Shown here in pieces: positions 38,101 through 64,000 of a stretch of 64,000 bases of DNA; position 1 is the first letter of the stretch, and each line of letters begins with the position of its first letter. The DNA is taken from the NCBI GenBank assembly GCA_002842095.1, contig PHCB01000006.1, positions 3,814-67,813 on the forward strand. Reading direction: 5' to 3'. Below the pieces are notes generated by a model that saw only the letters and a program-made list of their open reading frames with translations, searched no databases and was not told where the DNA came from. The translations under genes were made by a program, and so were the position numbers. Source of the stretch: a candidate division BRC1 bacterium HGW-BRC1-1. GTDB lineage: Bacteria > Sumerlaeota > Sumerlaeia > Sumerlaeales > Sumerlaeaceae.

Positions 38101-38138
38101 CGTCGGGATTTTTCGCTATTTTTTGTGTCGCGGAAATT

Positions 38139-42118: not shown

Positions 42119-42563
42119 AAGCGAAGCCTTTGGCACAAAGGCACGAAGGCACAAAGAAATGCAGGATGGGGCAAGGGCGTTCCGAGGCTGTTTGTGTTGT
42201 GAGATGACCAGCGCTCTATAAGCGGTACCATCCAAATGTGGGCCCGACGCCCTCGCCGCTCGCCGCAAGGCATTGTCTGCACGCCAAACCGTTTTTCCGA
42301 CGGAAGGATCTCTCGCAGGGCCGCAGGAACAAAACGGTTAGTTTATCCTTCAATCGGATTTTCTGGTGGGGGGTTCATCGCCGTTTGCGTTGTCAGATTC
42401 CGCCGCTCCTCCGGAGCGGGCTTTTAGGTGGGACGGTTCCGGGGGTTCCGGTCGCTGCGCTCCCTCCACCGCCCGGCTACTTGCCGAGCCCCCTCCGGGG
42501 GCACAAACACCATGACAGTTCACACCTGTCTGTATACAAAAAGCATATTGAGGACACAGCTGT

Positions 42564-42596
42564 CAGGCGACCGGCGAGGGCGCCGGTCCCACATTA
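42564..42596. repeat. R1 REP-like hairpin element, copy 4 (CAGGCGACCGGCGAGGGCGCCGGTCCCACATTA)
   Basis: Identical hairpin core to the copies at 3273, 7111 and 10219. Confidence 0.7.
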
Positions 42597-44658: not shown

Positions 44659-44698
44659 GTTGCGACCGGTGTGCAACCGGTGTGCAACCGGTGTGCAA
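44659..44698. repeat. Tandem 11-mer CCGGTGTGCAA ×3.6, the reverse complement of the TTGCACACCGG array at 32104
   Basis: Direct comparison. Lies in the 650-nt divergent intergenic region between the two FlgD-Ig-like paralogs. Confidence 0.75.
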
Positions 44699-44816
44699 GC
44701 CCCCCAAAACGCCCGCACTGATATTGACTTCCTTTGTGCCCATGCGCCTCGGTGATGCCTTTATCTATATCTGCGCAGGGCGGAGCAGAAAGCCTCCGAG
44801 GACTGTCATCTTTTCT

Positions 44817-46637: not shown

Positions 46638-47307
46638 TTATTGCTTCGCGGCGTCTTCCACACCCGTAAGGGATATTTGCGCTTTACGCATGAGACCACT
46701 GTACTCCTGCGCCGTGCGCGCCTGAGTCGCCAGTTCCACGTAATGGGTGAACTCGTCGAGATTATCGAGAACCACGCTTTTGGGGGAGTCGTCCTGGGAG
46801 GTGTCGGCCTCGATGCGTCCACGCAGTTGACCGGCCTGGTCTAACATTACGGCGGCTTTGTCGGCGGGCAGTTTCACGTCGTTGATAAGATCGAGATCAC
46901 GCAGGGTGGTGCGGATTTGGTCGGCGCCCGTGCGGGTGATGACAGCCGCCGACTTTTCGGTTTCAGCGGGTGCTGTGCGGATCGATGCCACGGCCGATGT
47001 GGGGATATCGGTGATGACCAGGGGCGGGGGTGTGGGGATGTCACCGGGGGGGGCGGCGGGGGGGGGGGGGGGTGCCGACGGGGGTGTCGGAGGGTGGCGG
47101 GAGGGTTGGGACGACGGGGGTGGCTACGATGTCGAGGGTTTCGGTGCCGGTGGCTTGGAGTTGTCCGGTGGCGTCGCGGGCGGGTTGTTCAACCGCGGGC
47201 GGGTTGGCGGCATCTTTGGGGGCGGAAGAACCGCATCCGGACAGGAGCAGGGCGCTGGTGCCACAGGCAAGAAGCCCAAGGGCGGTGCGGCGGAGATAAA
47301 GATTCAT
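46638..47307 (-). pseudogene. Lipoprotein with a Pro-rich linker and C-terminal domain, split into two ORFs by a frameshift at a G15/C15 homopolymer
   Basis: ORF 47041..47307 is MNLYLRRTALGLLACGTSALLLSGC (lipobox) …PPPPRRPPR*. ORF 46638..46991 (other frame) remains open and Pro-rich back through the homopolymer at 47058–47072, then gives a folded-looking C-terminal domain. Confidence 0.5.
47058..47072. repeat. G15 homopolymer (preceded by G8 at 47046–47053) inside the lipoprotein coding region
   Basis: Counted directly in the sequence. Confidence 0.8.
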
Positions 47308-47430
47308 GGTGGGGAATGGTCCTTTGATGAGATTTTGACAGGAAACTTAAGTTACCCTGCTCAAATTGGCAAGGGAATGTGTGAGGTCGATTGAGCACTT
47401 GTCCGGCGAGCAGGTGAGCAACCACTTGCC

Positions 47431-47476
47431 GGAAAAATAAGAGGCGCAGGCCGCCTCGCGAAAGGTAGCCTGCGCC
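47431..47476 (-). terminator. Rho-independent terminator for the pilin-like operon
   Basis: On the minus strand: GGCGCAGGC-loop-GCCTGCGCC followed by TCTTATTTTT. Confidence 0.55.
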
Positions 47477-47493
47477 TGCGGGGTTAACAACTG

Positions 47494-49590: not shown

Positions 49591-49641
49591 GATGCGTGAT
49601 GCCCTTTCCGTGGCACGCGACAGGCGCGGACCACAAACAAA

Positions 49642-50244
49642 TCAAATAGCGCCGGGTACGAAACTAACATTGATGACAAAAGCCTGATAGCCGGGACCTG
49701 TCTCCAGATCGTCCGTTTTACGGACGGCCGCATTGCGCGAAGTATTGCGGTCGCCGACGCGAACAATCAAATTTGCGAAGGTTCGGTCGGCGGTGTCGTC
49801 CTGCTGAAACACGGGCAGGGTCGCTCCACCGGAGGTGACCTGGGAGCAAAGCGACAACCTGACGCGGGCCCCGGTGTTGGTATCAGCGGTGACACGTTCG
49901 AGAATCTGATTATCGCCGATGGTGTTAAGGTTTCCGTCTCCGTTGGCGAAAACGTATTGTCTAACGCTGTTATCGGGGCGAATGAACTGCAGCATGGTGC
50001 CGCTGTTGAGCACACCCACCGATTGCGCTTCGGCAGCTTCGAATTCGAGCGTTTGCACGAATCGGCGGGCGCTCTCCTCCATGCGGGTGCGCGTGGTGAG
50101 GCTCTTGGCGGCGCGGGCGTAAATGACCATGGTGCTGGCCATGGCAATACCCGCCATGGCGAAGATGGACAGCGCCACGATCATCTCTGTGAGGGTTACG
50201 CCGCGAGTGCGCAAGCGGGTGAATGGCTTAGAGGCGGTTATCAT
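49642..50244 (-). CDS. Prepilin-type (type IV pilin / T2SS pseudopilin-like) protein
   Basis: Class III signal: …TRG|VTLTEMIVALSIFAMAGIA with Glu at +5. Confidence 0.65.
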   Translation of the reverse strand: MITASKPFTRLRTRGVTLTEMIVALSIFAMAGIAMASTMVIYARAAKSLTTRTRMEESARRFVQTLEFEAAEAQSVGVLNSGTMLQFIRPDNSVRQYVFANGDGNLNTIGDNQILERVTADTNTGARVRLSLCSQVTSGGATLPVFQQDDTADRTFANLIVRVGDRNTSRNAAVRKTDDLETGPGYQAFVINVSFVPGAI

Positions 50245-50966
50245 TAATTAGCCCTCGCGACAAATACCGTGCGGTTGATGGTCTGGTGGCGCGACCCATC
50301 ACCCCAGGTGATGGTGATGCGTGCGGTTTTACCATCGTCGATATAGAATTTTGACGTAGAGTCGGGATTCAGCGACCAGTTGGTCGAGGTTGCCCCGGTC
50401 AGATCGGCGGTCAAACTGAGCGTGTTTGCGGTGTTGCTTTGAATGCGCATAATCTGTGTGCGCCCGAGACCCTCGGTGATGGTGACGTAATGCCCCGTCC
50501 ATTCGTTGGTATTCCAAGCCGACAAACCAGCCGGGAAAGATGCGGTGAGGCTATTGCCGGTGGCCGACGCCACGCTCCCCCATCCTGTGAAGGTAAAAGA
50601 AACGTTATAAATCGTAGACGCCGATGGCTCGGAGGGGTTGCTATACACCGTTTGGGGGGTGAGAAATAGGCGGGCAAAGGCTCCCGACGGAGCTGCCTGA
50701 TCACCCAGATAGGCCGGAGTTGACGCGCGGATCATGGATGCATATTTTACAGCCAGATTGACGCCGTAAAGATGCTGGGTGTTGACCTCAGCCTGACGCG
50801 CGGTGAAAACCATGGCGCTGATGAAGGCCAGCGTGGTGATGGCAATGATGGCCACCGCGAACACGGCTTCGACAAGAACCATGCCTTTCTGTCGGTGAAA
50901 GCGAATGATCACAACGCACAGTCCTTGTGGGGCAAGTAGTGGGTAGGACGGATTACGGTTTTTCAT
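50244..50966 (-). CDS. Prepilin-type protein (pseudopilin-like)
   Basis: …RFHRQKG|MVLVEAVFAVAIIAITTLAF with Glu at +5. Start chosen at MKNRNP (ATG 50966); the ORF-track start at 51074 is less likely. 1-nt overlap with the next gene. Confidence 0.55.
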   Translation of the reverse strand: MKNRNPSYPLLAPQGLCVVIIRFHRQKGMVLVEAVFAVAIIAITTLAFISAMVFTARQAEVNTQHLYGVNLAVKYASMIRASTPAYLGDQAAPSGAFARLFLTPQTVYSNPSEPSASTIYNVSFTFTGWGSVASATGNSLTASFPAGLSAWNTNEWTGHYVTITEGLGRTQIMRIQSNTANTLSLTADLTGATSTNWSLNPDSTSKFYIDDGKTARITITWGDGSRHQTINRTVFVARAN

Positions 50967-51131
50967 AAGCAAACGGAGTGCCACATAATAAGTGGATCGG
51001 TGTGATGACAGAACACTGATAACGAATAGTTTAGATTTTAGGCACGGGCACCTGGCAGGGGAAAAGAGTTGCACAAAAAGAGTGCGTCGCTCATTATTTG
51101 TGCAGGCGACATGGGGGAGACCGGAGCGAGG

Positions 51132-51203
51132 GAATGGACGTTAATGGACGATATGGACACTATGGACGAAATGGACGGGGGTGGATTGGACGGATGGGAC
51201 AGG
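51132..51203. repeat. Tandem 9-mer array (A/T)ATGGACNN: AATGGACGTT-AATGGACGA-TATGGACAC-TATGGACGA-AATGGACGG…GGATTGGACGGATGGGACAGG, in the divergent promoter region between the pilin operon and the LysM-CE4 gene
   Basis: Related arrays at 60715–60760 and 62535–62585, each adjacent to a G7–G8 run. Confidence 0.7.
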
Positions 51204-51253
51204 CAATTTGGGTGCAGGTTGATGACCTTCGGGCTTTTCGAGTAGTTTGAGTT

Positions 51254-52351
51254 ATGATTAATCAAACATCAATCATCGCCCGCGGGTTGCTGGTGGCTGC
51301 CCTGTTGCCTTGGTTATGGGCCGATGCCAGCGGGGCGTGGTGGAATTCGCGTCGGTCGGCGCGGGAAACTCCCCCGCCGCCGGTGCCTGCCCGCTCCCAT
51401 CAAGCGCCGACCAGCCAGCCGGATCGTAAACAGCGTCGTGCGCTGCCGGAAGAAAATTTGTCGCCGGCTCCGGCTGCCGCGCCGGAAACGCCGGCACCTT
51501 TTGTTGCAATGGAACCAGGCACGGCGAGCGACTCGGGGTTCACGACGGTCACCTTTGATTTTTCCGTACCGATCAGAGAAGTTGCACGTTGGGGTGATTT
51601 GTCGACTTCCGAGATTCTGGCGGGAAACGGACTGACCTACAAACGCCTGCGGGCGGGGCAGGTGCTGAAAATTCCAGCTGTCGAAAACGGAATACCCGGG
51701 GAGGTCATGGCCGGGGAGATGTCGCGGGAAATCTGGCGCGGGGTGCGGGGAGCCCGGCGCATCGCGCTGACATTCGACGCCGGAGGCGAGAACGACGCCG
51801 CCGAGGAGTTGGTCGCGGTTTTGAAGGAGACGGAGACGTCGGCAAGTTTCTTCGCGACCGGGCGTTTTGCGCGGCGCTATCCCCGCGAGATGGCACTGCT
51901 GGCCTCTGCGGGTCCGGTCTATAATCATTCCGATACGCATCCGGATTTCACCACGATTTCGGCTGAAATGATCCGGGATGAATTACAACACGCGGAAGAT
52001 TCGGTGAGTTCCCAAACGGGGCAATCCACGAGACCATTTTTCCGTCCGCCTTTCGGCGAACGCAATCGCGCAGTTCTCGAAACCGCCGCAGACGCCGGGT
52101 GGAAAAGTGTCTATTGGACGCTGGACAGTCTGGACGGTTACGACGAAACGCTGAAAGGTGAAGAGCTGGCTCGCAATGTGTTGGAGCCGCGACGCACCAA
52201 CGGGGCCTCGGCGGACGAGTTTCTCGACGGGGCCATCGTGTTGATGCACGTGGGCAATCACGAAACGGTGAAGGCGCTGCCGGAAATTATCGGTGGGTTG
52301 CGCGAGCGCGGTTTCGAACTGGTTCCGCTGGACACACTTCTTCAGCCGTGA
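51254..52351 (+). CDS. LysM domain plus polysaccharide deacetylase (CE4/NodB) protein
   Basis: Signal/TM N-terminus; LysM (DLSTSEILAGNGLTYKRLRAGQVLKIP); NodB motifs TFDAGGEN…, HSDTHPDF, LMHVGN. Confidence 0.7.
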   Translation: MINQTSIIARGLLVAALLPWLWADASGAWWNSRRSARETPPPPVPARSHQAPTSQPDRKQRRALPEENLSPAPAAAPETPAPFVAMEPGTASDSGFTTVTFDFSVPIREVARWGDLSTSEILAGNGLTYKRLRAGQVLKIPAVENGIPGEVMAGEMSREIWRGVRGARRIALTFDAGGENDAAEELVAVLKETETSASFFATGRFARRYPREMALLASAGPVYNHSDTHPDFTTISAEMIRDELQHAEDSVSSQTGQSTRPFFRPPFGERNRAVLETAADAGWKSVYWTLDSLDGYDETLKGEELARNVLEPRRTNGASADEFLDGAIVLMHVGNHETVKALPEIIGGLRERGFELVPLDTLLQP

Positions 52352-52448
52352 TCAGCACGGTGCGGTGAAACGCGTTGCATTTTTACCCCGACAGGTTTCA
52401 AGGTCTGGGAAAATCGGAGCCTCGCGCCAGACCGGAGATCAATTCATC

Positions 52449-54260
52449 ATGATTGCAAAAGAGCTTGCTAACGCCGTACGGGATTTTGCCCGGGGAGCCG
52501 ACGCGCAAACCTTGCGCGAAACGGTGGACTTCCTGGCAGAGGCGATGGAACAACCCGACACCGCCACGCGGGTGGAGGACGCCTTTTCGCGCGATCTGGA
52601 TTTTGGCACGGGGGGTTTGAGGGGCATCATGGGGCCGGGTCCGAACCGCATGAATCGGATGACGCTGGCGCGGGCCACGCAGGGATTTGCCAACTACATT
52701 CGCGGGGCGGCGGTGGACAATCCCGCCGTTTGCATCGCATACGATTCGCGCCGGCGCTCGCGCGAATTCGCCGAGGTGGCCGCGGGTGTTCTGGCTGGCA
52801 ACGGCGTGCGCGCGCTGGTGTTCGAGGATGTGCGGGCGACGCCCATCCTTTCGTTTGCGGTGCGGCACGAGGGCGCCACGGGCGGCATCGTGGTGACGGC
52901 GAGTCACAACCCGAAAGAGTATAACGGCTACAAAGTATATTGGCGCGATGGGGCGCAGGTCATTCCGCCGCAGGACCGGGGCATTATTGCCGAAGTGCGT
53001 CAGGTGGCGGGGGGCGATGCGATACGCCAGGTGGATTTCAGCGAAGGGCTGAAGTCGGGCATGATCCGATTGCTGGGCCGCGAAATTGACGAGGCTTATC
53101 TGGCGGCGATCGACGTGCAACGATGCCTGCGCGAGACGGCCACGAAACACGGTGGGGATTTGTCCATCGTGTACACACCCCTGCATGGCACGGGTGTACG
53201 GTCGGTGCCGCCGGCGCTGGCGGCATGGGGATTCACGAACGTGAATCTGGTGCGCGAACAGGCGGAGCCCGACGGCGAATTTCCCACGGCACCCAGCCCG
53301 AACCCCGAGGAGCGAGACGCGCTGAAGCTGGCGCTGGAACTGGCCCGCGAGGAGAATGCGGATATCGTGATGGCGACCGACCCCGACGCCGACCGCATCG
53401 GCGTGGCGGTGCGCCACGAGGGCGAGATGCGTTTGCTTACCGGGAACGAAATGGGGGCGCTGCTGGTGTGGTGGTTGTGCAACGGAAGCATGCGCGGTGG
53501 AACCGACCCGGAGAATGGGTTGGTGGTGAAATCGATCGTCACCACGGAACTGATTCGCGCCGTGGCCGAGGCGAAGAATGTGGCCGTGGAGGATGTGCTG
53601 ACCGGCTTCAAATGGATTGCCCGTGTGATGCGCCTGAACGAGGAGGCGCAGGCCGAGGGTAAACCCGGGAAAAATTTCCTCATGGGTTGCGAGGAAAGTT
53701 ATGGCTATCTGGTGGGCGACCATGCGCGCGATAAGGATGCCGTGGTGACAGCCTGCGTGACCGCTGAAATGGCACTGTGGGCGAAACACAATGGCAAGAC
53801 GCTGGTGGATTTGCTGCATGAACTTTTCACCCGCCACGGCGTTCACGTGGAGAGCCAGCTGAGCAAGACCATGAAGGGCGTGACGGGGATGCAGGCCATG
53901 GCGGAAATGATGGACGCCCTGCGGGCCGATCCTCCGAAAGAGGTTGCAGGCATTGCGGTGAAGGAAGTGCTGGATGTGGAAAAAAACATTGTGAGAGAGA
54001 TGACCTCGGGCACCACAAAAGAAGGTCCCGACCTTCCCGCCAGCAATGTTTTGATCTTCCGGCTCATGGATGGCAGCGTGGTGGTGGCTCGTCCGTCGGG
54101 GACGGAACCGAAGATTAAATTTTATTTCATGGTGGTTGACCGCGAGGGCATTCCCTTCGCGGATGCGGGGGTTCTGGGTGAGCGTCTGGACGCCTGCCGC
54201 GCAAAAGAAGAAGCTTTGAAGGCCGATTTTAATGGAAAGCTTGAAGCACTGAGCCGTTAG
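52449..54260 (+). CDS. Alpha-D-phosphohexomutase (phosphoglucomutase/phosphomannomutase family, PgcA-like)
   Basis: Active-site TASHNPKEYNGYKVYW; metal-binding DPDADR; sugar-binding GCEESYGYL. ORF-track start at 52293 is upstream; ATG 52449 (MIAKELANAV) is preferred. Confidence 0.8.
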   Translation: MIAKELANAVRDFARGADAQTLRETVDFLAEAMEQPDTATRVEDAFSRDLDFGTGGLRGIMGPGPNRMNRMTLARATQGFANYIRGAAVDNPAVCIAYDSRRRSREFAEVAAGVLAGNGVRALVFEDVRATPILSFAVRHEGATGGIVVTASHNPKEYNGYKVYWRDGAQVIPPQDRGIIAEVRQVAGGDAIRQVDFSEGLKSGMIRLLGREIDEAYLAAIDVQRCLRETATKHGGDLSIVYTPLHGTGVRSVPPALAAWGFTNVNLVREQAEPDGEFPTAPSPNPEERDALKLALELAREENADIVMATDPDADRIGVAVRHEGEMRLLTGNEMGALLVWWLCNGSMRGGTDPENGLVVKSIVTTELIRAVAEAKNVAVEDVLTGFKWIARVMRLNEEAQAEGKPGKNFLMGCEESYGYLVGDHARDKDAVVTACVTAEMALWAKHNGKTLVDLLHELFTRHGVHVESQLSKTMKGVTGMQAMAEMMDALRADPPKEVAGIAVKEVLDVEKNIVREMTSGTTKEGPDLPASNVLIFRLMDGSVVVARPSGTEPKIKFYFMVVDREGIPFADAGVLGERLDACRAKEEALKADFNGKLEALSR

Positions 54261-54405
54261 CTCTGCCCGTGAGAGGTGAGGAACGTCTCCTGATGAAGTC
54301 GTTTTCTGTTGCGGACAAAAGCATTGACTTGCATCGTTGATCAACCATGGTTTGAAGCACATCAGTTCACCGTCTGGGTGAACGGAGAAAGGTCGTTATC
54401 ACGCA

Positions 54406-55509
54406 ATGCGTGTGAAATATGTAGTGTTGGCAACCCTTCTGAGCGCTGCCGCAGGGCTGGCGCCGGCGCAAATGCTGGCTGAACTTGACGCGGCTCAGGC
54501 TGGGCAGAATCAACTGAACCAAGGCAGCGTCACGGGCGGCCTCGACGCGGGCGGTCTTCAGAACCGTGCAAACACCGCGGCTCAACAAGCAAATGGCTTG
54601 CCGGCCTTGCCGGGCACAAGCACCAACCTGCCAAACCCCACGGGCGGTTTTGCTCCACCAGCGGCCGGGCCTCTGCCGGGCTTGGGCGATCCCTCGTTGG
54701 GTGCACCGATGCAGGCCGGGCCCGAGGGCGCCATGGGCGATCCGGGCCTGGGTCAACCAGGAATGTACTCCCCTCAGCAGGGACAGCAGGGCGCGGTCCC
54801 CACACCAACGCCTCTTCCCACCATCGAAGTGCTCACGGGCAAGCGCGTCTTCTGTGCCGTGTGCGGCACGATGCTGGAAGATGCTTACAAAGTGCGTGTG
54901 TATGAAACCGACATGAATTCCTACGCCGACGACGGCGTTGTGGACAATGGCGTGGCCGGCGACGGTCTGCGTGGCAACGTGGAGACCATCAAAAACAATT
55001 ACGTCGGTGCCGCATGTCACGAAATTCGCACGCGGCTTATTAACGCCGTGCGCGGGGCCGAAGACATGCGCCCCCCCAGCATGATTGGCAAGTACGAGGA
55101 AAGCCCTTATTATCTGGAAGACCCTGAAAGCCGCCAGAAACGCATGGAGGCCCAGTTGCGTCAGCGTGCGCAGGAGGAAAGCACCATGCATTTCTTCCGC
55201 TATCACGTGGCTACCATCGACCCCACCGACAAGTCGGGTATGCCTTATCTCGTTAAACAAGAAGAGCAGCGGGACAATTATCTGGCCGAGTGGAACAACC
55301 GTTTCCTGGCCAAATTCCGCATGAAGTCAGAAGACCCTCAAAGCGAGTATTATCCGCTGTATATCCCCCAGCCACCCCTTCCGCCCACGCGTACACTTCC
55401 CGCTGGTTACGTCTCCCCGCAGCAGATGCGTACTGGCGCACAACCCGGTCAGATTGGAGCAGGAGCCGCCGCTGGTCCGAACATTTTCAACGGCGACCCC
55501 GTCATTTAA
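54406..55509 (+). CDS. Secreted hypothetical protein with a Gly/Pro/Gln-rich N-terminal half and a conserved-looking C-terminal domain
   Basis: Signal peptide MRVKYVVLATLLSAAAGLAPAQ; CxxC (CAVCG) motif; no family assigned. Confidence 0.45.
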   Translation: MRVKYVVLATLLSAAAGLAPAQMLAELDAAQAGQNQLNQGSVTGGLDAGGLQNRANTAAQQANGLPALPGTSTNLPNPTGGFAPPAAGPLPGLGDPSLGAPMQAGPEGAMGDPGLGQPGMYSPQQGQQGAVPTPTPLPTIEVLTGKRVFCAVCGTMLEDAYKVRVYETDMNSYADDGVVDNGVAGDGLRGNVETIKNNYVGAACHEIRTRLINAVRGAEDMRPPSMIGKYEESPYYLEDPESRQKRMEAQLRQRAQEESTMHFFRYHVATIDPTDKSGMPYLVKQEEQRDNYLAEWNNRFLAKFRMKSEDPQSEYYPLYIPQPPLPPTRTLPAGYVSPQQMRTGAQPGQIGAGAAAGPNIFNGDPVI

Positions 55510-55716
55510 CCCGTGTCGCCCTTTGGCACAGAGAATTCACTTGCTTGCCCCCCGGACTCACTTCGGGGTTGATTGTGGTCTGTTTGCAGTTTTTCAATTT
55601 GCCCGTTTCCATATCGACACGTCTGCGTGGCGCGGCAATAGCGGTGCCTTTGTTGGACATGGTCCGACATGGGTTTTAAGAGATGATATTTCAAGGATGA
55701 ATCGACACTAACAAGC

Positions 55717-56280
55717 ATGGCTGCCAGTGGTCCAAAACCCCCATCGCCCCAAGAGTTGGCGCTTGCTGATGCCGAGCACCTTATGGAATTGTGGATGCTC
55801 ACGCGTCAATATTTTCAGAAGGCGAACACGGAAGACCCCATCACGCGAGAAGATGAACAGCAATTCCTCGAGATGAAGAGCGACATCACCAAGTATCAAC
55901 GCACGGTGACGCCCAAGATGCCCGAAGGTGTGAGCTATGGGGCCGAGCGCATGACGGACTTGTTGCGTCAAAGCATCTCCATTTCGCATCTGCGCGGGTT
56001 GCCAAAGCCAGACCGAGTGGCACTGATCATCACCTGGCATAGTGTTTTTATACAGTTAACGCGGGCCGTTGGCTCGTTAAAGTTTATCTCGGAAGGTTGG
56101 ATCCCGCGGGCGCAGCAGAAGACCGGTGGATCGAACATTTCGGATTTGAAGAAGGCCGCTGGCAAGAAAACGGGCGAGAAAGCCGCTTGGACGAAGCCTA
56201 AGTTCTGGGTCATTGTGGTGTTCGTGATTGTCGGCGGCTGGTTTGCTTATCAGCGTCTTCAATCATCCGGCATATTGTAA
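55717..56280 (+). CDS. Small protein (187 aa) with a C-terminal TM helix; paralog of 60214..60624
   Basis: ELWMLTRQYFQK…ITREDEQQFLEMKSDI…ALIITWHSVFIQLTRAVGSLK aligns with RLWQEYFKFF…ITEQQEKQFFQLMNIL…LLIDWHTLFISMNKTIGKLK in the downstream paralog. Confidence 0.5.
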   Translation: MAASGPKPPSPQELALADAEHLMELWMLTRQYFQKANTEDPITREDEQQFLEMKSDITKYQRTVTPKMPEGVSYGAERMTDLLRQSISISHLRGLPKPDRVALIITWHSVFIQLTRAVGSLKFISEGWIPRAQQKTGGSNISDLKKAAGKKTGEKAAWTKPKFWVIVVFVIVGGWFAYQRLQSSGIL

Positions 56281-56380
56281 TAAAGTTTTTACCCCCGGGC
56301 TCCGGCGGCTTTGGCCGGCGGAAAGCACGGGTTTGCAAGGTAGGATTGTTTAACAGGGTTCCACGAGAGAAGACAGGTTA

Positions 56381-59300
56381 GTGAGGGTGAGCATCGTGAG
56401 AAACGTTCGCAGGCTCAAGATTGAGAAGATTGCAGCCGTGGCCATCATGGCGGCATTTTGTTTTGCGCCGTTGGGTTGCAGCAAGCAGCGCGCAGACCTC
56501 AGCTTGAAAAAAGCCAATAACAATATAAATACGGCCCGCAGTTGGGACGCCGATAAGTACGACGAGAGCAAGGCCGACTTTAACGCAGCGGCTGAGGCTG
56601 CGAAGGCGGCGCAATCGTCGATGGATGGGCAGCAATATCCCCAAGCCCTGACATCTGCGCAAGACGCCGTGAAAAAGAGCGAGGCTGCCATCAATGCGGC
56701 CAAGGTGCGGTTCGCAGAACAAAACCGTACCGCTGCCAAAACGGCCCTCGACGTGGCGAACAAGAACAACGGTCGCGACGAAGACCAAAAACTCTTCGAT
56801 GAGGCTCAGGAACAACTGACCGTTGCCGAGGAAAAACTCGCCAAGCAGAAGTATGAGGACTCCATCGAAGCGAGCGCCAAGGCCGTCAGCGCCGTGGATC
56901 AGCTTCTGGCCCGCTTGAAAAACGAGAGCGAGAAGATGCTCGAGGATCTGCAAACCAAGCGCAAGAACCTCGAAGACGCCCAGGCGAACAACTTCCTGCC
57001 CAACTCCCTCATCAATATTAACAACGCCATCAATCAGGTGGAAAAGAAAGTCAAAGAAGAGCGCGACTACAAGCAGGCGCTCATTATTGCCAAGGCCGCA
57101 GCCACTGAGGCAGACGAAAACCTGAATGAAACCAAGAAGCGCCATGGCAAGCAATTGCTGGAAACTCTGGAGAGCAAAATCGCCGAGGCGATCAGTGAAG
57201 AGGCGCCCATCTACGCCGCCGAACAATTGAAGACCACGCAAGAATCCTTCGAAAGCATCCTGAAGGATTTTTACGACAACCAGTTCGACTCCGTGCTCGA
57301 CGGCGCCCAGCGGCTCGTCCCCAAGACCGATCAGCTCATCACGATCACCCGGATTGAGGCGACGAAGGACAAGATCGCCAACGTGAACAGCAGCATCACG
57401 GCGCTGAAAGAGCAGGATGTGGAACGCTACCTGCCGGGCCGTTTGCAGCCGATTCAGGTAATTGCAACGGAAGCTGAACTGCTGTTCAATAACAACGACT
57501 ACAACGGCGCGAAGCAGAAGGCGCTGGATGGTCTGGCCGAGCGCGACCGTGTGGTTGCGGCCTTCGATTCACTGGCCGAGCAGACGATCACGGTGGCCGA
57601 TCAGGCTTTGAACGCAGCAACGCAGACCTATGAGAAGATGCTCAGTTTCTTTGCGGCTCCCGCCACGCGGGTTGCTGCGGTGGATTCCCGCATCGAAGCA
57701 CGCCGCCAGAGCGAGGCTACCGACCTGGCCGCCCGCCGTAAGGCCGCCGCCGAAAACCTTGATGCCGCAAAAAACAACCGCACCCAAAGCCAGTTCAAGA
57801 AGGCTATCGAGCAGGGCAAGGAAGTCGCCGTATCTGCCGAGAGCGTGATGAACGGCACATTCAAAATCGTGGCCGAGCATGCGTTGCTGAGCGTGCAGGA
57901 CGAGATTTCGGTACTGGAGCGCGAAGGCGCCCGCGTCGAGGCTCCCCGGCAGCTTAACGAAGTGCAGGCGTTGGTGGAAGCCACGCAGAACCTGATCCGC
58001 GACAACAAAAACCGCGAGGCGGCCGAGTACACGGCAAAAGCCCGCGCTTATCTGGAGAACGTGAAGCAGGAGCTCTCGCGCCGCGCTCTCGAAGAGCGTG
58101 ACCGCGCCGACCAGATGATCCGTCGTCTGGAAGGCTCCGCTGCCACCCGCGAATTCCCGGGTGGCAGCGACCTGAACAACAAGGAAGCAATGTTCGCTGA
58201 AGTGGAACAACTGGCTTCCGAGCAGACCGCTCCCGTTCAGCTTGCGCAGACCTATGCTTCGCCCAACACGGTGGTTCCCGGACCGGGTGGGGCGTCGAAC
58301 CTGAACTCCAACAAGCAATACCCAAGTGGAACATACGCCACCGACGGCCCGGCGGGTTCTTTGAATTACGCCGCCCGCAACACGAATGAGCCCAACGGTG
58401 CCATCATCGGCACGCGCCCCGAGCCGATCGTCCGCACGCACGAGAATGCGGGCATCTCCTTCGGAAACGCGCCGTATGAGGGAGCCAATGCTCCTGGTCC
58501 GTTCGTTGCCGTCAGTGCTGCTCCGGCAGGCTCTGCCATGAGCTACTCAGCGGGAACCGGCGAAGTATCCGACATCAGCGCGGTCGTCTACGAAATCCTC
58601 AGCGACGACACCCGTGTTCGCGACATCCAGAAGTACGAGCCTGCTGCCGTGAACGAAGCGCGTGCAAAGCTGAAGGAATCGACCGATGCCCTTGTGGCGC
58701 AGAACTACGCAGCGGCGCTGACCGCCTCGAAGGAAGCGCAACGGATCATCGTGGAAGCGGAAATGCGCGCGGCAGCCGCGGCAGCTCGCGAGAACCTGCA
58801 AGCCGCAGCCGATCGCATTAACCTGGCCGAAGTTTCCTCAGCCGCCATGTTCGCCCCGGCGCAACTGATGGAAGCCATCAAACTCTTCCGCCAGTCGGAA
58901 GACTTCCTCACCAAGGGAATGAACATCGAAGCGCGCGACGCCTCGCAGCGTGCAGTCATTGCTGCCGACGACGCCCGCCTTTACAACGTGAACAAGGCCC
59001 GCGACATGGCATCGCTCTCCACCCGCTACGGCGGTTGGAAAGCCGCCCATCCCCCGCTGCTGGCAGCCGAGCAAAAAGCTTCCATCGCCGAGGACATGCT
59101 GGCCGATCCGAACACCGCCGCCCAGGGTCAGGCTCTGGCTCAGGAGGCCGTGGTTTGCGCCCAGATCGCTCTGGACGCCGCCCGCGACTTCACCTTCCAG
59201 GAGCGCCTCGACAACATCCACAAGGCGTTGAACACCGCTCTGCGCGCTGGTGCAAATTACTTCAACGTGTCTGAAGTGAAACGCCTCATCGCCGAACTGG

Positions 59301-60088
59301 CCATTGCCCGCGACGAGTATAACTCACGCAACTTCGACGCCGTGGAACTGAAGTTGAAAGACATCGAAGCCCGGCTCGCCCGCGTCATCGAAAGCACCCC
59401 GCTGGTGCTTCAGGAGAACCTGACGGACCTGACCGAGAAGCTGAACGCTCTGGTCGAGGCTGGTGCGGAAAACTTCTTCATGGCGCAGGAAGTCGACGAC
59501 GTGAAGTCGCTGATGAACCGCTCCGCCATCGACTTCCGCAAGCATGACTATCAGTCGTCCTACACGAATCTGAAGAACGCCATGAAGCTGACCGATTCCA
59601 TCGAACTGCGTCTGCAGGAGCAGGTTTACTTTGACTCGGTGACCGAGCTTTTCGCGCAACTTGACAAGGCTTTCCGCAACTTCAGCACCGTGCTGAATGC
59701 GGACCGGGCCATGCTGAAGAAGCTCGTCACGCTGCCCAACGGCATGCAGGCGTCCATCAACATCACCGGTCAGGCCAGCCCCAATCTGTTCAAAGACACC
59801 GTGAACGACATCTATCTGCGCGCCATTCATCTCAAGCCGCCGACATCGCAAGAAGGCACGCACCGCGAGTTGCTGGTAGCCATCAAGTACGCCCGCACTG
59901 CGGCCGAGAACTTCCAGAAGCTTTACATTCTGGATCAGGTCTCGCGGCCCGACGCGTACGACATCATTGAGACGGCCTTTGCCCAGATCGACAAGTCGAA
60001 GATCATGCGCAGTGAGATTCAGATCAAGCTGATCGACCCGCAAGCCCGCACCACGGTCATCCACGCCGAGAAAATCGTTAACTACTGA
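56381..60088 (+). CDS. Giant (1235-aa) secreted/lipoprotein-like alpha-helical repeat protein
   Basis: Signal peptide with Cys (…AAFCFAPLGCSKQ), then at least 8 tandem approximately 100–150-aa helical modules sharing an aromatic-A-x-x-(Q/E)-(L/V) start (IYAAEQL, MFAPAQL, YFNVSEV, FFMAQEV), reminiscent of DUF4398-type helical repeats. Highly charged, coiled-coil-like. Confidence 0.6.
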   Translation: MRVSIVRNVRRLKIEKIAAVAIMAAFCFAPLGCSKQRADLSLKKANNNINTARSWDADKYDESKADFNAAAEAAKAAQSSMDGQQYPQALTSAQDAVKKSEAAINAAKVRFAEQNRTAAKTALDVANKNNGRDEDQKLFDEAQEQLTVAEEKLAKQKYEDSIEASAKAVSAVDQLLARLKNESEKMLEDLQTKRKNLEDAQANNFLPNSLININNAINQVEKKVKEERDYKQALIIAKAAATEADENLNETKKRHGKQLLETLESKIAEAISEEAPIYAAEQLKTTQESFESILKDFYDNQFDSVLDGAQRLVPKTDQLITITRIEATKDKIANVNSSITALKEQDVERYLPGRLQPIQVIATEAELLFNNNDYNGAKQKALDGLAERDRVVAAFDSLAEQTITVADQALNAATQTYEKMLSFFAAPATRVAAVDSRIEARRQSEATDLAARRKAAAENLDAAKNNRTQSQFKKAIEQGKEVAVSAESVMNGTFKIVAEHALLSVQDEISVLEREGARVEAPRQLNEVQALVEATQNLIRDNKNREAAEYTAKARAYLENVKQELSRRALEERDRADQMIRRLEGSAATREFPGGSDLNNKEAMFAEVEQLASEQTAPVQLAQTYASPNTVVPGPGGASNLNSNKQYPSGTYATDGPAGSLNYAARNTNEPNGAIIGTRPEPIVRTHENAGISFGNAPYEGANAPGPFVAVSAAPAGSAMSYSAGTGEVSDISAVVYEILSDDTRVRDIQKYEPAAVNEARAKLKESTDALVAQNYAAALTASKEAQRIIVEAEMRAAAAAARENLQAAADRINLAEVSSAAMFAPAQLMEAIKLFRQSEDFLTKGMNIEARDASQRAVIAADDARLYNVNKARDMASLSTRYGGWKAAHPPLLAAEQKASIAEDMLADPNTAAQGQALAQEAVVCAQIALDAARDFTFQERLDNIHKALNTALRAGANYFNVSEVKRLIAELAIARDEYNSRNFDAVELKLKDIEARLARVIESTPLVLQENLTDLTEKLNALVEAGAENFFMAQEVDDVKSLMNRSAIDFRKHDYQSSYTNLKNAMKLTDSIELRLQEQVYFDSVTELFAQLDKAFRNFSTVLNADRAMLKKLVTLPNGMQASINITGQASPNLFKDTVNDIYLRAIHLKPPTSQEGTHRELLVAIKYARTAAENFQKLYILDQVSRPDAYDIIETAFAQIDKSKIMRSEIQIKLIDPQARTTVIHAEKIVNY

Positions 60089-60099
60089 GGTAACCGCCT

Positions 60100-60207
60100 G
60101 TGGACCTGAACTACGTAACTCAAGTCGAGATCATCTTCATCGTGGCCGTGCTGGCTTTTGCCGGCTATGTGTTCTATGCCCTCGACCTTTACAAGAAGGG
60201 CCGGTAA
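60100..60207 (+). CDS. 35-aa single-TM mini-protein (GTG start) 12 nt after the giant gene stop
   Basis: VDLNYVTQVEIIFIVAVLAFAGYVFYALDLYKKGR; GAGG Shine-Dalgarno sequence 8 nt upstream. Below the ORF-track size cut-off. Resembles the C-terminal TM helix of paralog 55717..56280. Confidence 0.4.
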   Translation: MDLNYVTQVEIIFIVAVLAFAGYVFYALDLYKKGR

Positions 60208-60213
60208 TCAACG

Positions 60214-60624
60214 TTGGTCTCTTCCGCGCAAAAGAAGCTTCTCAAGCAAATGACTTCCATTGAAAACCGTCTGGCTGTAGTCAGCGAGTACACCCGCCTT
60301 TGGCAGGAGTATTTCAAATTCTTCTCCGACGGCATCGATGAAAAAGACCATATCACCGAGCAGCAGGAGAAACAGTTTTTCCAACTCATGAACATCCTTG
60401 GCGTGAACCACTTCCGGTTTTCGGAAATGGCCGGAGAGTACTTCAAGGATGGCGAGATGATCCTCGACGTGATCGGAAGAACTCCAAGCCTGGACGCCAT
60501 CAAGCACATGAGCGACGCCCAGTTCTCTCCCCTGCTTATCGACTGGCACACACTGTTCATTTCCATGAACAAGACCATCGGCAAATTGAAACCCCAACTG
60601 CCGCCACCTCCTCCACAGAAGTAA
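60214..60624 (+). CDS. Small soluble protein (136 aa, TTG start, C-terminal PPPPPQK); paralog of 55717..56280 lacking the TM helix
   Basis: See the alignment under 55717..56280. Confidence 0.45.
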   Translation: MVSSAQKKLLKQMTSIENRLAVVSEYTRLWQEYFKFFSDGIDEKDHITEQQEKQFFQLMNILGVNHFRFSEMAGEYFKDGEMILDVIGRTPSLDAIKHMSDAQFSPLLIDWHTLFISMNKTIGKLKPQLPPPPPQK

Positions 60625-60652
60625 CCCCCAAGCCAGTTGGTGCGAAAAAGTA

Positions 60653-60707
60653 ATCGCCCGGCTGAGAGCGCTGTTAAAAACAGCCTCTCTGCCGGGCGTT
60701 TTTCTTT
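60653..60707 (+). terminator. Strong rho-independent terminator (approximately 20-bp imperfect stem CGCCCGGCTGAGAGCGCTGTT / AACAGCCTCTCTGCCGGGCG, then TTTTTCTTT)
   Basis: Read directly; immediately precedes a G8 run and the 9-mer array. Confidence 0.7.
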
Positions 60708-60714
60708 GGGGGGG

Positions 60715-60760
60715 GATGGACGGAATGGACGGAATGGACGATATGGACACTATGGACAGT
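60715..60760. repeat. Tandem 9-mer array GATGGACGG-AATGGACGG-AATGGACGA-TATGGACAC-TATGGACAG
   Basis: Same family as 51132 and 62535. Confidence 0.7.
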
Positions 60761-60784
60761 GTTCTAGATTGAGAAGCGCGACCC

Positions 60785-61036
60785 TCAGTGGTCCACTACA
60801 CCGTCCATGGAGCGGGAGCGGGGGTTTGTCCTGGAGCCCTGAACAATCGGTCCCAGCGCGTAATAGGCGTAGAGTCCCGCAGCCACAATAAAGATCCACC
60901 CAAACTTGCTGCCTCGCAGCAGCAGCAGCGCCAGCCCTACGGCAGCCAGCACCGCCACGATGGCCAGAGGCCCCATCAGATCGCCGGGACGTGCCGCCAG
61001 CAGCCCCATGCCATGCACCAGTGTTGTTCCCATCAT
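60785..61036 (-). CDS. Small two-TM membrane protein (83 aa) immediately downstream of the ABC substrate-binding gene
   Basis: Hydrophobic segments LLAARPGDLMGPLAIVAVLAAVGLALLLL and FGWIFIVAAGLYAYYALGPIV. Confidence 0.4.
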   Translation of the reverse strand: MMGTTLVHGMGLLAARPGDLMGPLAIVAVLAAVGLALLLLRGSKFGWIFIVAAGLYAYYALGPIVQGSRTNPRSRSMDGVVDH

Positions 61037-61044
61037 TGCACCTT

Positions 61045-62439
61045 TCAGTTGCCTGCAGGGGCGCTTGTGGGCGCTGTATCGCCCTGTGTCGCCGCCTTCG
61101 GTTCTACTTTGTTTGCTCCCGCGCCGCGCTCGGGCACCACTTCAAGGCGCTTGTCCACACGGGCTTCCAGCTCTTTCAGTTCCTGATCCGGGTCCGCATT
61201 GCGGTTCAGCACGCGGTCGACCATTACGCCGATCTCCTGCCGGATGCCATCCCAGGCCCGAATCTTCGGCTCCTGCCTGCCCAGGTCGTTTGCCACCCAA
61301 CTGGCCGCTTCGGCGTAATTGGCATTCTCAGCCATGTACTTCACCATTTCGGGGTCTCTCAGCACCGAGTAGCGGATGGGCATGTAGCCTGTCGATGTTT
61401 CCCATTTCACGCTGCTTTTGATGTTGGTGAGAAACTTAAGGAATTTCCAGGCAGCGGCGCGCTCGCCCTCGCTCTTGTTGTTGAAGATGCCCACGTTCGT
61501 GCCCTGCATTACATAGCGCGGCGAGCGGCCGGCGATGCCGGGGATGGGCGCCACCCCCCACTGGAACTTGCCCGCAACCTTCTTGGAAACGTACGGGAAA
61601 CTGGCGCTGCTGTAAATGAACATGGCGATCTGCTCGTTGGCCAGGGGGGCATCCATGTACTCGGCGTTCACGTACAGGTGCTTCTTGGGCGTCTGCAGAT
61701 TGCGCCAGAAGTTCAACACGGTGCGGGCGTCCTCGGTGTCAAAAACCGGTTTGCCCTCGGCATTCAAAAAGTCGCCCCCGCTGGCGAAATACAGCGTCGT
61801 AAAGCTTTCGCTGGCCGGCTGCACGCCGATGCCGTAGGTCTTCTGGCCGGGGCCGTCCACGTTGGTCAGTTTCACGATCACATCGCGGAACTCATCGAGG
61901 TTCTTGGGTGCCGTGGTTATGCCCGCAGCGGCCAGTCGGTCGAGGTTCATGTAGAGCGCATAGACGCTCTTGTTGAAAGGCATCGTCACCAGCTTGCCGT
62001 CGTAGCTGTTCGCCTCACGGTACACCTTCACGATGTCGTCGATCTCGCCGGGCGCCCAGCCATCGGGGCCGTTGATGTGGTCTTCCACATGATCCATCAG
62101 GTTCGCCGCGTAAAAGTCCGAGGTCCAGCTTTCGTAAACTGTGGCCAGCGCCGGGTTCTTGGCGGGGGATGTGGCGAAGGAGTTTTGAAGTTTCTGCAAC
62201 AGTTCCTGGGGGCGGCCCTGATAGAGGGGCTTGACGATGATAGTCGGATTTTCTTTCTCGAAGTCCGCCACGATAGCTTTCAATGTCCGCTCGTGGTCAC
62301 CGGCGAAATAGTGCCAGAATTCAACGACGGTTTTTCCGTCGGCGTTAACCCCTTTGTCGTCGGTTTTGGGCTTGCCACCGCATCCGGCAAGGACCAGTGC
62401 GATGAGGATGCTGAGGGCGAGAAAGGACAGACGTTTCAT
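61045..62439 (-). CDS. ABC transporter substrate-binding lipoprotein (family 1, carbohydrate type)
   Basis: MKRLSFLALSILIALVLAGCGG lipobox; EFWHYFAGDHERTLKAIVADFEKENPTIIVKP typical of sugar-binding proteins. Confidence 0.7.
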   Translation of the reverse strand: MKRLSFLALSILIALVLAGCGGKPKTDDKGVNADGKTVVEFWHYFAGDHERTLKAIVADFEKENPTIIVKPLYQGRPQELLQKLQNSFATSPAKNPALATVYESWTSDFYAANLMDHVEDHINGPDGWAPGEIDDIVKVYREANSYDGKLVTMPFNKSVYALYMNLDRLAAAGITTAPKNLDEFRDVIVKLTNVDGPGQKTYGIGVQPASESFTTLYFASGGDFLNAEGKPVFDTEDARTVLNFWRNLQTPKKHLYVNAEYMDAPLANEQIAMFIYSSASFPYVSKKVAGKFQWGVAPIPGIAGRSPRYVMQGTNVGIFNNKSEGERAAAWKFLKFLTNIKSSVKWETSTGYMPIRYSVLRDPEMVKYMAENANYAEAASWVANDLGRQEPKIRAWDGIRQEIGVMVDRVLNRNADPDQELKELEARVDKRLEVVPERGAGANKVEPKAATQGDTAPTSAPAGN

Positions 62440-62534
62440 GGGGGTTCTCCAAGTGGGATCGTGACGGTTGTGTCTTTAGTGTTTCGGAGAGCGTGTTAGC
62501 GCGCTGAAGGGGCGTTGTAAAGTCGCAAGAGCAC

Positions 62535-62585
62535 GGGGGGGATGGACGGTATGGACACTATGGACTTTATGGACAGAATGGAGCG
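62535..62585. repeat. G7 run plus tandem 9-mer array GATGGACGG-TATGGACAC-TATGGACTT-TATGGACAG-AATGGAGCG, in the divergent region between the binding-protein gene and the creatininase-family gene
   Basis: Same family as 51132 and 60715. Confidence 0.7.
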
Positions 62586-62751
62586 GAAATGCGATGAAGC
62601 ATTCTGACCTGTCCCGCGCAAAATTCTCTTGCTAAGAAATCCTGTCGGCAACCTTTGAGGATGCAGTTTGCTTCGAGGTTCGTTTAACGTGCAGGCTACA
62701 TTCGCACCGGACCACCTCGGGGCCACTGAGCCTTCAAAGGAGCGTGTCACC

Positions 62752-63555
62752 ATGCAATGGGAGAATCTGACAAGCGACGATTTCGCTGAGGCGGTTAAAT
62801 CCACCGGGGGCGTTTGTGTGGTTGGGGCGGGAGTGCTGGAACGCCACGCCACGCATCTGCCGTTGGGCACCGACATGATCATTTCCCACGCCGCCTGCGT
62901 TCGCGCCGCCGAACGCGAATCCGCCGTGGTATATCCGGCGGTGTGGTTTGGTCAGATATTCGAAGCGCGCTGTTTCCCCGGCACCGTTACGCTCGAACCC
63001 AAACTTCTTTTCCACCTGTACGAGGCCGTGTTCGACGAGATTGCCCGCAATGGTTTCCGCAAGATTATCGTCCACAACGGCCACGGCGGCAACTGGCATC
63101 TGCTCAAGTATCTTGCCCAGAGCACCTTGTGGGCGCGCAAACCGTATACGCTCTACATTCAGTCCACCTGGCTGAACCCCGAAGAAGACAAGGCGTGGAA
63201 AGCACTGCGGGAAACCGAGTACCACGGCCACGCGTGTGAGTGCGAAACGAGCTGCATGCTCGACGTCGCGCCGCATCTGGTGTACATGGACCGCGTGCCC
63301 CCCGAACCCGCGCTGAACCTGAAACGCGACGCGCATCTGCCCGACAACTTCTCGGGAAGCTCGTGGTACGCAGCCCACCCCGAGCATTACGCAGGCGACG
63401 CCCGTACCGCCACGGCGGAGAAGGGCGCGAAGCTCATGGAGCTGATGGTCGCCTCGCTGACGCGCTTCATCACCAACGTGAAAAATGACACTGTTCTCCC
63501 CGCGCTGGAGCAGGAATTTTACGATCGCTGCGATCGCGTCGGAGGTCAGGAGTAA
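62752..63555 (+). CDS. Creatininase-family amidohydrolase (creatinine amidohydrolase/MftE-like fold)
   Basis: VVGAGVLERHATHLPLGTDMI…HNGHGGN…EYHGHACECETS metal-ligand pattern. Start at ATG 62752 (MQWENL); the ORF-track TTG at 62668 is less likely. Confidence 0.6.
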   Translation: MQWENLTSDDFAEAVKSTGGVCVVGAGVLERHATHLPLGTDMIISHAACVRAAERESAVVYPAVWFGQIFEARCFPGTVTLEPKLLFHLYEAVFDEIARNGFRKIIVHNGHGGNWHLLKYLAQSTLWARKPYTLYIQSTWLNPEEDKAWKALRETEYHGHACECETSCMLDVAPHLVYMDRVPPEPALNLKRDAHLPDNFSGSSWYAAHPEHYAGDARTATAEKGAKLMELMVASLTRFITNVKNDTVLPALEQEFYDRCDRVGGQE

Positions 63556-63567
63556 CATCCTCCAACG

Positions 63568-64000
63568 ATGAACTCGATCGCCTCCCCCTCACTCAAACGC
63601 GCCGGTTGGTGGTTTCTTGCCTTCGCGGCTCTTATCCTGTTCGCCGTCATGCTGCAGCGCGGCATGCGCGGCGGACGCGTTGCCACCCACACTCCCGACG
63701 GTCGCGTGATTGTGGAATACTGGGAAAAGTGGGCGGGCATCGAAGCCGAAAACATGCGCGTGATTGTGAACGATTTCAACGCGTCGCAGAACCGCATCTT
63801 CGTCAATTATCTCAGTGTGGGCAACATCGAACAGAAATTTTTGCTGGCAGCCAGCGGTGGTAATCCGCCCGACGTCATCGGGCTTTACGACCAGAACACG
63901 CTCAACTTCACCGAGAAGGGCGCGCTGTTGCCACTGGATAAATTGATGGCGCGCGACGGTCTAACACCCGCCGATTATCTGCCGCGCATCCTGAACCTCG
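63568..64000 (+). CDS. ABC transporter substrate-binding protein, N-terminal part (continues beyond window end)
   Basis: Signal/TM, then EYWEKWAGIEAENMRVIVNDFNASQNRIFVNYLSVGNIEQKFLLAASGGNPPDVIGLY, typical of family 1 binding proteins. 12 nt after the creatininase-family stop. Confidence 0.6.
   Translation, partial: MNSIASPSLKRAGWWFLAFAALILFAVMLQRGMRGGRVATHTPDGRVIVEYWEKWAGIEAENMRVIVNDFNASQNRIFVNYLSVGNIEQKFLLAASGGNPPDVIGLYDQNTLNFTEKGALLPLDKLMARDGLTPADYLPRILNL

Follow-up and report, generated by a model that had tools for sequence, protein, structure and literature searches.

Three short tandem arrays of the hexamer ATGGAC lie between genes in a 64,000-nt stretch (the window) of the genome of HGW-BRC1-1, a bacterium of the Sumerlaeota (candidate division BRC1), the whole readable part of which amounts to 72 kb. 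The question raised by this locus is whether such arrays are regulatory sites of the genes beside them, as suggested by an initial annotation that saw in them candidate regulator-binding iterons or variable-number repeats that could act on the expression of flanking surface genes, or an element of another kind. The repeat unit is a run of ATGGAC hexamers phased at exactly 9 bp, with nearly free 3-bp spacers and often led by a G-run. Its copies are dispersed, have spacer order in common, turn over fast and occur in many phyla without gene association, under constraint on core and phase. Our preferred, still tentative reading is that a mosaic intergenic repeat of the REP, MITE or STRR type, dispersed and evolving fast, has given rise to the three arrays, whose hexamers would be recognised by a putative protein, and not dedicated operators.

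The presence of the arrays is beyond doubt. Direct reading and Tandem Repeats Finder give three ATGGAC-N3 arrays with a 9-bp unit, all on the + strand, and the two-unit pattern ATGGACNNNATGGAC, allowing at most one mismatch, has 11 matches in the window, all of them inside these arrays, against 0.27 expected from shuffles. Single copies are not over-represented, as 40 hexamers are found in total for 29 expected, 26 of them outside the arrays. Array 1 (51134-51176) has five exact ATGGAC cores, starting at 51134, 51144, 51153, 51162 and 51171 and separated by the spacers GTTA, GAT, ACT and GAA, with an initial spacing of 10 bp. It is followed on the same strand by a tail (51177-51200) made of a G5 run and of the decayed units GTGGAT, TGGAC and ATGGGAC, which is probably a second, eroded array. 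Array 2 (60716-60757) has five exact cores with the spacers GGA, GGA, GAT and ACT and is led by a G8 run (60708-60715, + strand). Array 3 (62542-62583), led by a G7 run (62535-62541, + strand), consists of four exact cores and one ATGGAG, with the spacers GGT, ACT, TTT and AGA. Each array thus has five units, and the five to eight copies annotated initially are reached only when the decayed units of site 1 are counted; the adjoining run of seven or eight G is likewise accurate for sites 2 and 3, where it leads the array, but not for site 1, where five G come after it. No further array was found in the 8.4 kb of the source genome beyond the window.

Cores and spacers behave very differently. 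Over the 15 units of the three arrays, the core departs from the consensus at 1/90 positions and the spacer at 21/45 (p=3e-11), the spacer positions carrying 0.17-0.66 bits of information. This is not what is expected from a decaying tandem duplication and shows that core and phase are constrained, the spacer being free. The flanks of the three arrays are unrelated to each other except for the G-run, and yet the internal order of spacers is common to the three loci, arrays 1 and 2 having GATATGGACACTATGGAC in common and array 3 having TATGGACACTATGGAC in common with them, which indicates that they are related copies. Furthermore, the exact 24-mer ATGGACGATATGGACACTATGGAC of arrays 1 and 2 is found verbatim in five metagenome contigs (L453-L457) from unrelated organisms with GC contents of 0.51-0.70. 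Apart from it, these contigs do not resemble the window; in three of them AAG comes as the next spacer, then ATGGAC. The recurrence of ATGGACGATATGGACACTATGGAC in unrelated contigs points either to horizontal spread or to some constraint on spacers.

Comparison with close relatives shows that the arrays change rapidly. Six assemblies of the same strain, from different samples, reproduce the window from 51045 to 64000 with 100% identity, in the arrays as elsewhere; these assemblies are consensus sequences and say nothing on variation within a population. Two of the six, independent short-read assemblies from Logan (L447 and L449), end exactly at 60728, inside array 2, and the arrays thus act as assembly breakpoints. 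In a sister species of 91% nucleotide identity (L450, GCA_966193525.1), arrays are present at all three sites. At site 1, the array is identical including its spacers, and the tail after it differs. At site 2, a G7 run stands instead of G8, the five units have other spacers and two mutated cores, and an extra 85-bp insert directly after the array carries a copy of another repeat, the REP-like GC-rich hairpin described below for the window. At site 3, G7 is replaced by G5 and five units by two, followed by unrelated sequence, both promoter-proximal flanks being conserved at about 97%; a common module, AGGGCGAMGACGYTAA, follows the arrays of sites 2 and 3. In a relative at 75% protein identity, arrays are lacking. 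Taken together, these comparisons make the arrays the variable centre of conserved intergenic regions, with a turnover at species-to-genus depth, and hot spots of difference between sister species. Unit number and G-run length do differ between sister species, but not among the six consensus assemblies of one strain.

The same arrays are found far beyond this lineage. A scan of one genome per species with the three-unit ATGGAC-N3 pattern found at least 120 genome stretches with such arrays. Among the stretches listed, 73 belong by record title to Verrucomicrobia (including Lentisphaeria, Kiritimatiellales and Akkermansia), Chlamydiae, Planctomycetes, Hydrogenedentota, Cloacimonadota, Sumerlaeota, Armatimonadota, Chlorobi or Poribacteria. 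Nearly all spacers are distinct in 102 of the 154 arrays of these listed stretches; 37 arrays are perfect, mostly in Actinobacteria and Proteobacteria, and resemble coding or ordinary repeats. Host GC ranges from 37 to 71% and the spacer positions are without strong preference, the stop codons TGA and TAA being among the commoner spacers. The phase is strict: outside the ascertained arrays, neighbouring ATGGAC pairs are spaced by 9 bp 24 times, by 18 bp 5 times, by 27 bp 4 times and by 36 bp once, all other spacings together occurring 8 times. In two Chlorobiaceae stretches (L008, 1635-1937, and L085, 1533-1898), the unit is expanded to 34 or more near-perfect copies (ATGGACGGA / ATGGACAGA; 34 units in L008) adjoining short variable-spacer arrays, and these expansions show that the family can behave as a true minisatellite.

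No association with particular genes accompanies this distribution. With the crude open reading frame (ORF) calls available for these loci, the arrays are mostly intergenic; 18 are found between convergent genes, 11 between divergent genes and, depending on orientation, 14 and 15 between co-directional genes, convergent regions being apparently in excess. The 91 flanking ORFs match 144 Pfam families, none of them more than three times and without enrichment in transposases, and the genes between arrays are ordinary. A surface-gene regulon or an adjacent transposase is therefore rejected. Local GC skew predicts the orientation of the arrays at 36 of 71 loci, which shows no replication-strand polarity, and this result, with the lack of excess of single copies, also leads to reject an uptake-, Chi- or KOPS-type oligomer. 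Successive intergenic regions often hold arrays (L051, L053, L080 and L088), and neighbouring arrays share orientation in 8 cases versus 2, which is not significant (p=0.11).

Inverted pairs make up 18 of the 95 array clusters and nearly always converge, with runs of ATGGAC followed by runs of GTCCAT. In many of them the two arms carry the same spacers counted from their outer ends, as terminal inverted repeats would, and unit number varies on the inner side. Terminal inverted repeats are clear in L455, L079, L103, L114, L035 and L036; in the window, only a possible decayed partner is seen, at site 2. In L455, a G-run and a C-run bracket a palindromic element, L455 and L457 being long palindromic versions. 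The distance between arms varies from 0 to about 65 bp, and the non-complementary spacers of the L035 and L119 pairs indicate that a hairpin is not the conserved feature. In one Lentisphaerae genome, an inverted pair is included in a 170-bp dispersed element, unit number differing between its copies. Mosaics are also observed: intergenic regions of Cloacimonadota combine GCAGAT 9-mers, ATGGAC 9-mers and GTCGTGA 7-mers, and array-rich genomes hold many other 7-11-bp tandem arrays.

Fold z-scores of the three arrays on both strands lie between -1.4 and +0.9 relative to shuffles, indicating no single-strand structure; Rfam gives no match at E<=1 in 47000-64000, and 18 array-bearing loci gave only a tRNA. 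As the fold is no better than that of shuffles and Rfam has no match, a hairpin, a terminator or a structured RNA is rejected. The constraint on hexamer and phase, the fixed polarity of inverted pairs and the lack of single-strand structure together suggest a putative protein binding several phased double-stranded sites. Such a trans-acting DNA-binding protein would recognise several phased hexamers cooperatively, and the hexamers would be kept for this reason. Such a protein may drive the spread of the element, in the manner of RAYT for REPs, or may belong to the host and have taken the element into its service. The arrays would grow and shrink by gain and loss of units and by insertion of other small repeats. 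Effects on flanking genes, if any, would be incidental and could result from altered promoter spacing, from a mutable poly-G tract or from a C-rich, unstructured stretch in minus-strand transcripts.

Several points weigh against reading the arrays as copies of a dispersed repeat. Only three copies are found within 72 kb of the source genome, and those of the window are half elements in a single orientation. Array 1 is the same in both sister species down to its spacers, amid surroundings that have diverged, which is equally compatible with a local function. Neither a target-site duplication nor an empty site was recognised in the flanks examined, and the flanking and in-between genes examined include none for a binding protein, a transposase or a RAYT-like protein. 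The phyla listed above form well under a tenth of the genome collection, and the taxonomic enrichment rests on that share; the collection was scanned with ATGGAC alone. Finally, raw match counts are no evidence, since control hexamers match as often in viral contigs: with a 9-bp period, ATGGAC has at least 120 matches there and two arbitrary control hexamers have at least 120 and 83, mostly coding repeats. The case for a special family rests instead on phylum skew, non-coding location, variable spacers and strict phase. In viral contigs, non-coding variable-spacer arrays number 7 for ATGGAC and 2 and 9 for the control hexamers, and plasmids gave no relevant matches, so that a phage or plasmid centromere is rejected.

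The gene contexts in the window were described correctly at the outset, Pfam scans confirming two divergent regions and one convergent terminator region. Array 1 lies between a pseudopilin-like operon (- strand) and a CE4 polysaccharide deacetylase gene (+ strand), in whose product the LysM domain annotated initially was not detected at E<=0.01. Array 2 lies between convergent genes, just 3' of the intrinsic terminator (60655-60707, + strand) of the gene 60214-60624. This terminator, formed by a hairpin (60655-60698) and a T-tract, abuts the G-run of the array and is conserved in L450. On the other side, the array begins about 30 nt past the stop of the minus-strand genes. The possible decayed inverted arm of site 2 is found 35 bp past the array (60792-60808, - strand), where the + strand reads GTCCAC-N5-GTCCAT; its assignment is uncertain, and its pairing energy with array 2 is no better than that of shuffles. 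The final seven codons (…MDGVVDH*) of an 83-aa membrane-like ORF (60785-61036, - strand) overlap this arm and are encoded by ATGGACGGTGTAGTGGACCAC, whose resemblance to a decayed inverted arm of array 2 suggests that the 3' end of the ORF has perhaps been remodelled by the repeat. Array 3 lies between divergent genes for an ABC substrate-binding protein (- strand; PKO18682.1) and a creatininase-family protein (+ strand). A search for sigma-70 promoter clusters in the arrays gave a single weak 9/12 match, inside array 3, and such a cluster is rejected. As this array is cut from five to two units in the sister species while the promoter-proximal flanks are conserved, it is unlike a dedicated operator. 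Together with the variety of families flanking the arrays elsewhere, none of them recurring more than three times, and with their occurrence in all contexts and orientations, this goes against the initially proposed control of flanking surface genes.

Other explanations can nevertheless be considered. The arrays could benefit the host as architectural or regulatory sites, a chromosomal protein polymerising on the phased hexamers and each array being selected in place; this protein could be ribbon-helix-helix-like, as are omega, ParR and MetJ, or be a nucleoid-associated, insulating or topology factor. The invariant cores, the strict 9-bp phase and the direct and converging layouts do match cooperative operator or centromere arrays, and the conservation of array 1 and its spacers amid diverged surroundings, the frequent occupation of successive intergenic regions and the tendency of neighbours to share orientation go in the same direction. 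We consider it rather unlikely, however, as sites 2 and 3 change in unit number or content between sister species and the 75% relative is without arrays, no cognate gene is nearby and the neighbours have no common function, the distance between inverted arms varies, and several other hexamer families with the same layout would require several such proteins. The idea of regulator-binding iterons is retained only for the form of the arrays (invariant hexamers, free spacers, 9-bp phase), not for a cognate gene, none being adjacent. Conversely, the arrays could be plain long-unit simple-sequence repeats, neutral by-products of slippage without recognition by any protein, like the heptamers of cyanobacteria and Xanthomonas. 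The many other 7-11-bp tandem arrays of array-rich genomes, near-perfect expansions such as the 34 units of L008, the adjacent identical units GGA GGA at site 2 and a genomic behaviour matching that of GGGNATC repeats (PMC4692102) would fit this explanation. It is nonetheless improbable: copying of whole units should let decay hit core and spacer alike, which is at odds with the 1/90 versus 21/45 observed, and would not explain the same hexamer and phase across phyla from 37 to 71% GC or inverted pairs of fixed polarity.

Two further possibilities are weaker still. If these were contingency loci, as in the second idea of the initial annotation, the pseudopilin operon and the CE4 gene, or the binding-protein and creatininase genes, would be switched or tuned by variation of unit number or of the G7-8 tract. 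Such changes (G8 versus G7, G7 versus G5, five versus two units) are indeed seen between sister species, and two arrays stand between divergent genes. Slippage should however be slow, because the units are not identical, and the six assemblies of the strain do not differ; at site 2 the same element is found past a terminator between convergent genes, other phyla have it next to unrelated genes, and the conserved promoter-proximal blocks of site 3 are outside the array. This explanation is accordingly a very unlikely one. The arrays lack the identical units of a phase-variable simple-sequence repeat, as spacers differ in almost every unit and only the G7-8 runs qualify as slipping tracts. An element acting as RNA is, of all these, the one to which we give the least credit. 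Minus-strand GUCCAU-N3 repeats with their C7-8 stretch could form a Rho-loading site, or plus-strand AUGGAC repeats, with A-N-GGA every 9 nt, could titrate a CsrA-like protein. AUGGA agrees with A(N)GGA, the core of CsrA sites, the C-rich minus-strand RNAs of the arrays fold weakly (-2.6 to -4.4 kcal/mol), and the array of site 2 closely follows the stop of the minus-strand genes. On the other hand, no orientation rule relative to flanking genes is observed (14 versus 15 co-directional cases, with crude ORF calls), sense units would be paired with antisense ones in inverted pairs, a small RNA bounded by a promoter or a terminator was not found at the arrays, and Rfam has nothing. A rut site in particular is rejected: the RNA is C-rich, G-poor and unstructured, but it corresponds to the sense transcript past a gene at site 2 only.

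Two other identities were rejected on the sequence of the units. A coding tripeptide repeat does not apply, as the window arrays are intergenic and the stop-codon spacers TGA and TAA are common. DnaA boxes were already set aside by the initial annotation, and this judgement holds. The reverse complement GTGTCCATA fits the actinobacterial box TTGTCCACA at 7/9 positions, but its invariant C8 is a T; compared with the box TTATCCACA, in which T1, T2, C6, A7, C8 and A9 are conserved, position 8 is a T in 14 of the 15 units (cores reading GTCCAT on the box strand). Box positions 1, 2 and 9 moreover fall in the free spacer, and the spacer AAT that abutting boxes would give is not enriched. The ORFs scanned with Pfam between 27 and 64 kb of the window include neither dnaA nor dnaN. 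GC skew, in 4-kb windows, is about -0.2 at 1-8 kb, passes through zero at 28-44 kb, its sign changing near 36-44 kb, and reaches +0.1 at 44-56 kb, a course that may simply reflect gene orientation.

The window contains several other families of short repeats. A second array family, TTGCACACCGG, occurs as four perfect 11-bp units at 32104-32147 (+ strand) and three to four at 44661-44700 (reverse complement); the two loci, 12.5 kb apart and in opposite orientation, are 98% complementary, and the copy at 44661 abuts a C6 run (G6 on the array strand), being again a G-run with a short tandem array. A third family, (A/C)CATCTGCG, is present as three units with a 9-10-bp period at 10062-10118, 28551-28607 and 33779-33835, inside a longer dispersed repeat. 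Its reverse complement is GCAGATG, so that the window holds three GCAGAT(G) arrays, and in a Cloacimonadota stretch (L051, 5072-5098) a GCAGAT-N3 array adjoins an ATGGAC array; at least two hexamer families are thus common to distant phyla. Mosaic intergenic repeats are found upstream of several genes of unknown function (28320-28440, 28609-28690, 32141-32261 and 33875-33934). Their recurring modules comprise the hairpin GGGGGCAGGAATGCCCCC (28474-28504, 32037-32067 and 33740-33770) with CCCTGTCA after it, a short tandem array that varies in type and a block of about 100 bp (…TGGTTTTCCAACAAAGGAATTCGCGTT…GCGTCCATTAGCG…). A REP-like GC-rich hairpin repeat, GGCGACCGGCG(A/G)GGGCGCCGGTCCCACATTA, has at least six copies, at 3276-3306, 7114-7144, 10220-10250 and 42566-42596 and, inverted, at 4664-4700 and 42235-42274. 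Two inverted GACGCAAAG arrays (37839-37881 and 38062-38104), 81% complementary, flank 180 bp of non-coding, AT-rich sequence and with it resemble a small element whose arms are tandem repeats, and 8-bp arrays of GACACAAA and GGCACAAA are close to them (37886-37910 and 42132-42156). Finally, an extremely G-rich segment with a run of about 15 G (47026-47122) overlaps long ORFs at 46858-47394 (+ strand) and 47189-47611 (- strand) and is unrelated to the ATGGAC arrays.

A broader possibility, about which we are more doubtful than hopeful, is that the (ATGGAC-N3)n arrays and sister 6+3 arrays (GCAGAT, TATAGG, GATCGG and others) represent the DNA side of a protein-DNA system not described so far and common to Verrucomicrobia, Lentisphaerae, Chlamydiae, Planctomycetes, Sumerlaeota, Hydrogenedentota, Cloacimonadota and neighbouring phyla. 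This system could be either an intragenomic replicator comparable to REP/RAYT, in which phased hexamers take the place of hairpins, or a protein that organises the chromosome by polymerising on 9-bp-phased sites. Literature searches on the ATGGAC/GTCCAT motif, on hexanucleotide repeats with a 3-bp spacer and on Cloacimonas repeats found nothing relevant. Short intergenic repeats such as REP, BIME and STRR have long been known, their function mostly unexplained, and have been studied almost only in Proteobacteria and cyanobacteria. The ATGGAC arrays have a sharp signature: the hexamer is invariant and phased at exactly 9 bp, the spacers are free, inverted pairs converge and a G-run is optional. 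It recurs in phyla known mainly from metagenomes. This signature makes the search for a reader protein feasible, either through phylogenetic profiles or through pull-down from cultures of Akkermansia, Victivallis, Oligosphaera or Chlorobaculum. More immediately, annotation of these arrays as gene-specific operators should be avoided, and it should be kept in mind that short-read assemblies are broken by them.

Among known systems, REP, BIME and REPIN elements with their RAYT transposases have been described in Enterobacteria and Pseudomonas, as GTAG- and CGTC-tagged REPs (PMC3733652). The ATGGAC arrays are similarly short, dispersed and intergenic, form inverted doublets and mosaics, vary between close relatives, have an apparent preference for 3' and convergent positions and no link with gene function. 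A REP unit is however an imperfect palindrome of 20-40 bp with a GTAG or CGTC tag, whereas the arrays consist of 6-bp cores at 9 bp with free spacers and no tag; those of the window do not fold, and no RAYT gene is present among the genes examined near arrays. The STRR heptamers of cyanobacteria and the GGGNATC heptamers of Xanthomonas and Nostoc are intergenic, occur on both strands and have an unexplained function (PMC4692102). The likeness lies in tandem intergenic units of 7-9 nt on both strands, without preference for the leading or lagging strand, that differ in length and sequence between close relatives. The units of STRR and GGGNATC repeats are nevertheless near-perfect, with at most one free position, whereas ATGGAC units are one-third free, have a 9-bp phase, form converging inverted pairs and keep the same core in many phyla.

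Ribbon-helix-helix proteins bind 7-11-bp phased repeats, 2-10 in a row, as in the omega heptads of pSM19035, the ParR-parC iterons and the MetJ met-boxes. These too are contiguous phased repeats, direct and inverted, in which a short core is decisive, but they stand at one or a few promoters beside the gene of their binder, whereas ATGGAC arrays are dispersed beside unrelated genes. Likewise, compared with iterons, operators and centromeres in general, the arrays have the phased short direct repeats with a conserved core, but not the adjacent replication, partition or regulator gene. DnaA-box clusters have in common with them a 9-bp unit and the 7/9 match to TTGTCCACA, and differ by the T at box position 8 and by the free spacer at positions 1, 2 and 9. 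MITEs and transposon ends can carry subterminal hexamers bound by the transposase, such as the AAACGG motifs of Ac/Ds. Inverted arms made of repeated short motifs, polarity toward the centre, matching from the outer ends, variable unit number and the 170-bp Lentisphaerae family all recall such ends; the difference is that neither target-site duplication, autonomous partner nor transposase was found, and that most copies, including those of the window, are single arms. The anatomy of the ATGGAC arrays, phased hexamers with free spacers, is new, and their genomic behaviour is that of known short intergenic repeats.

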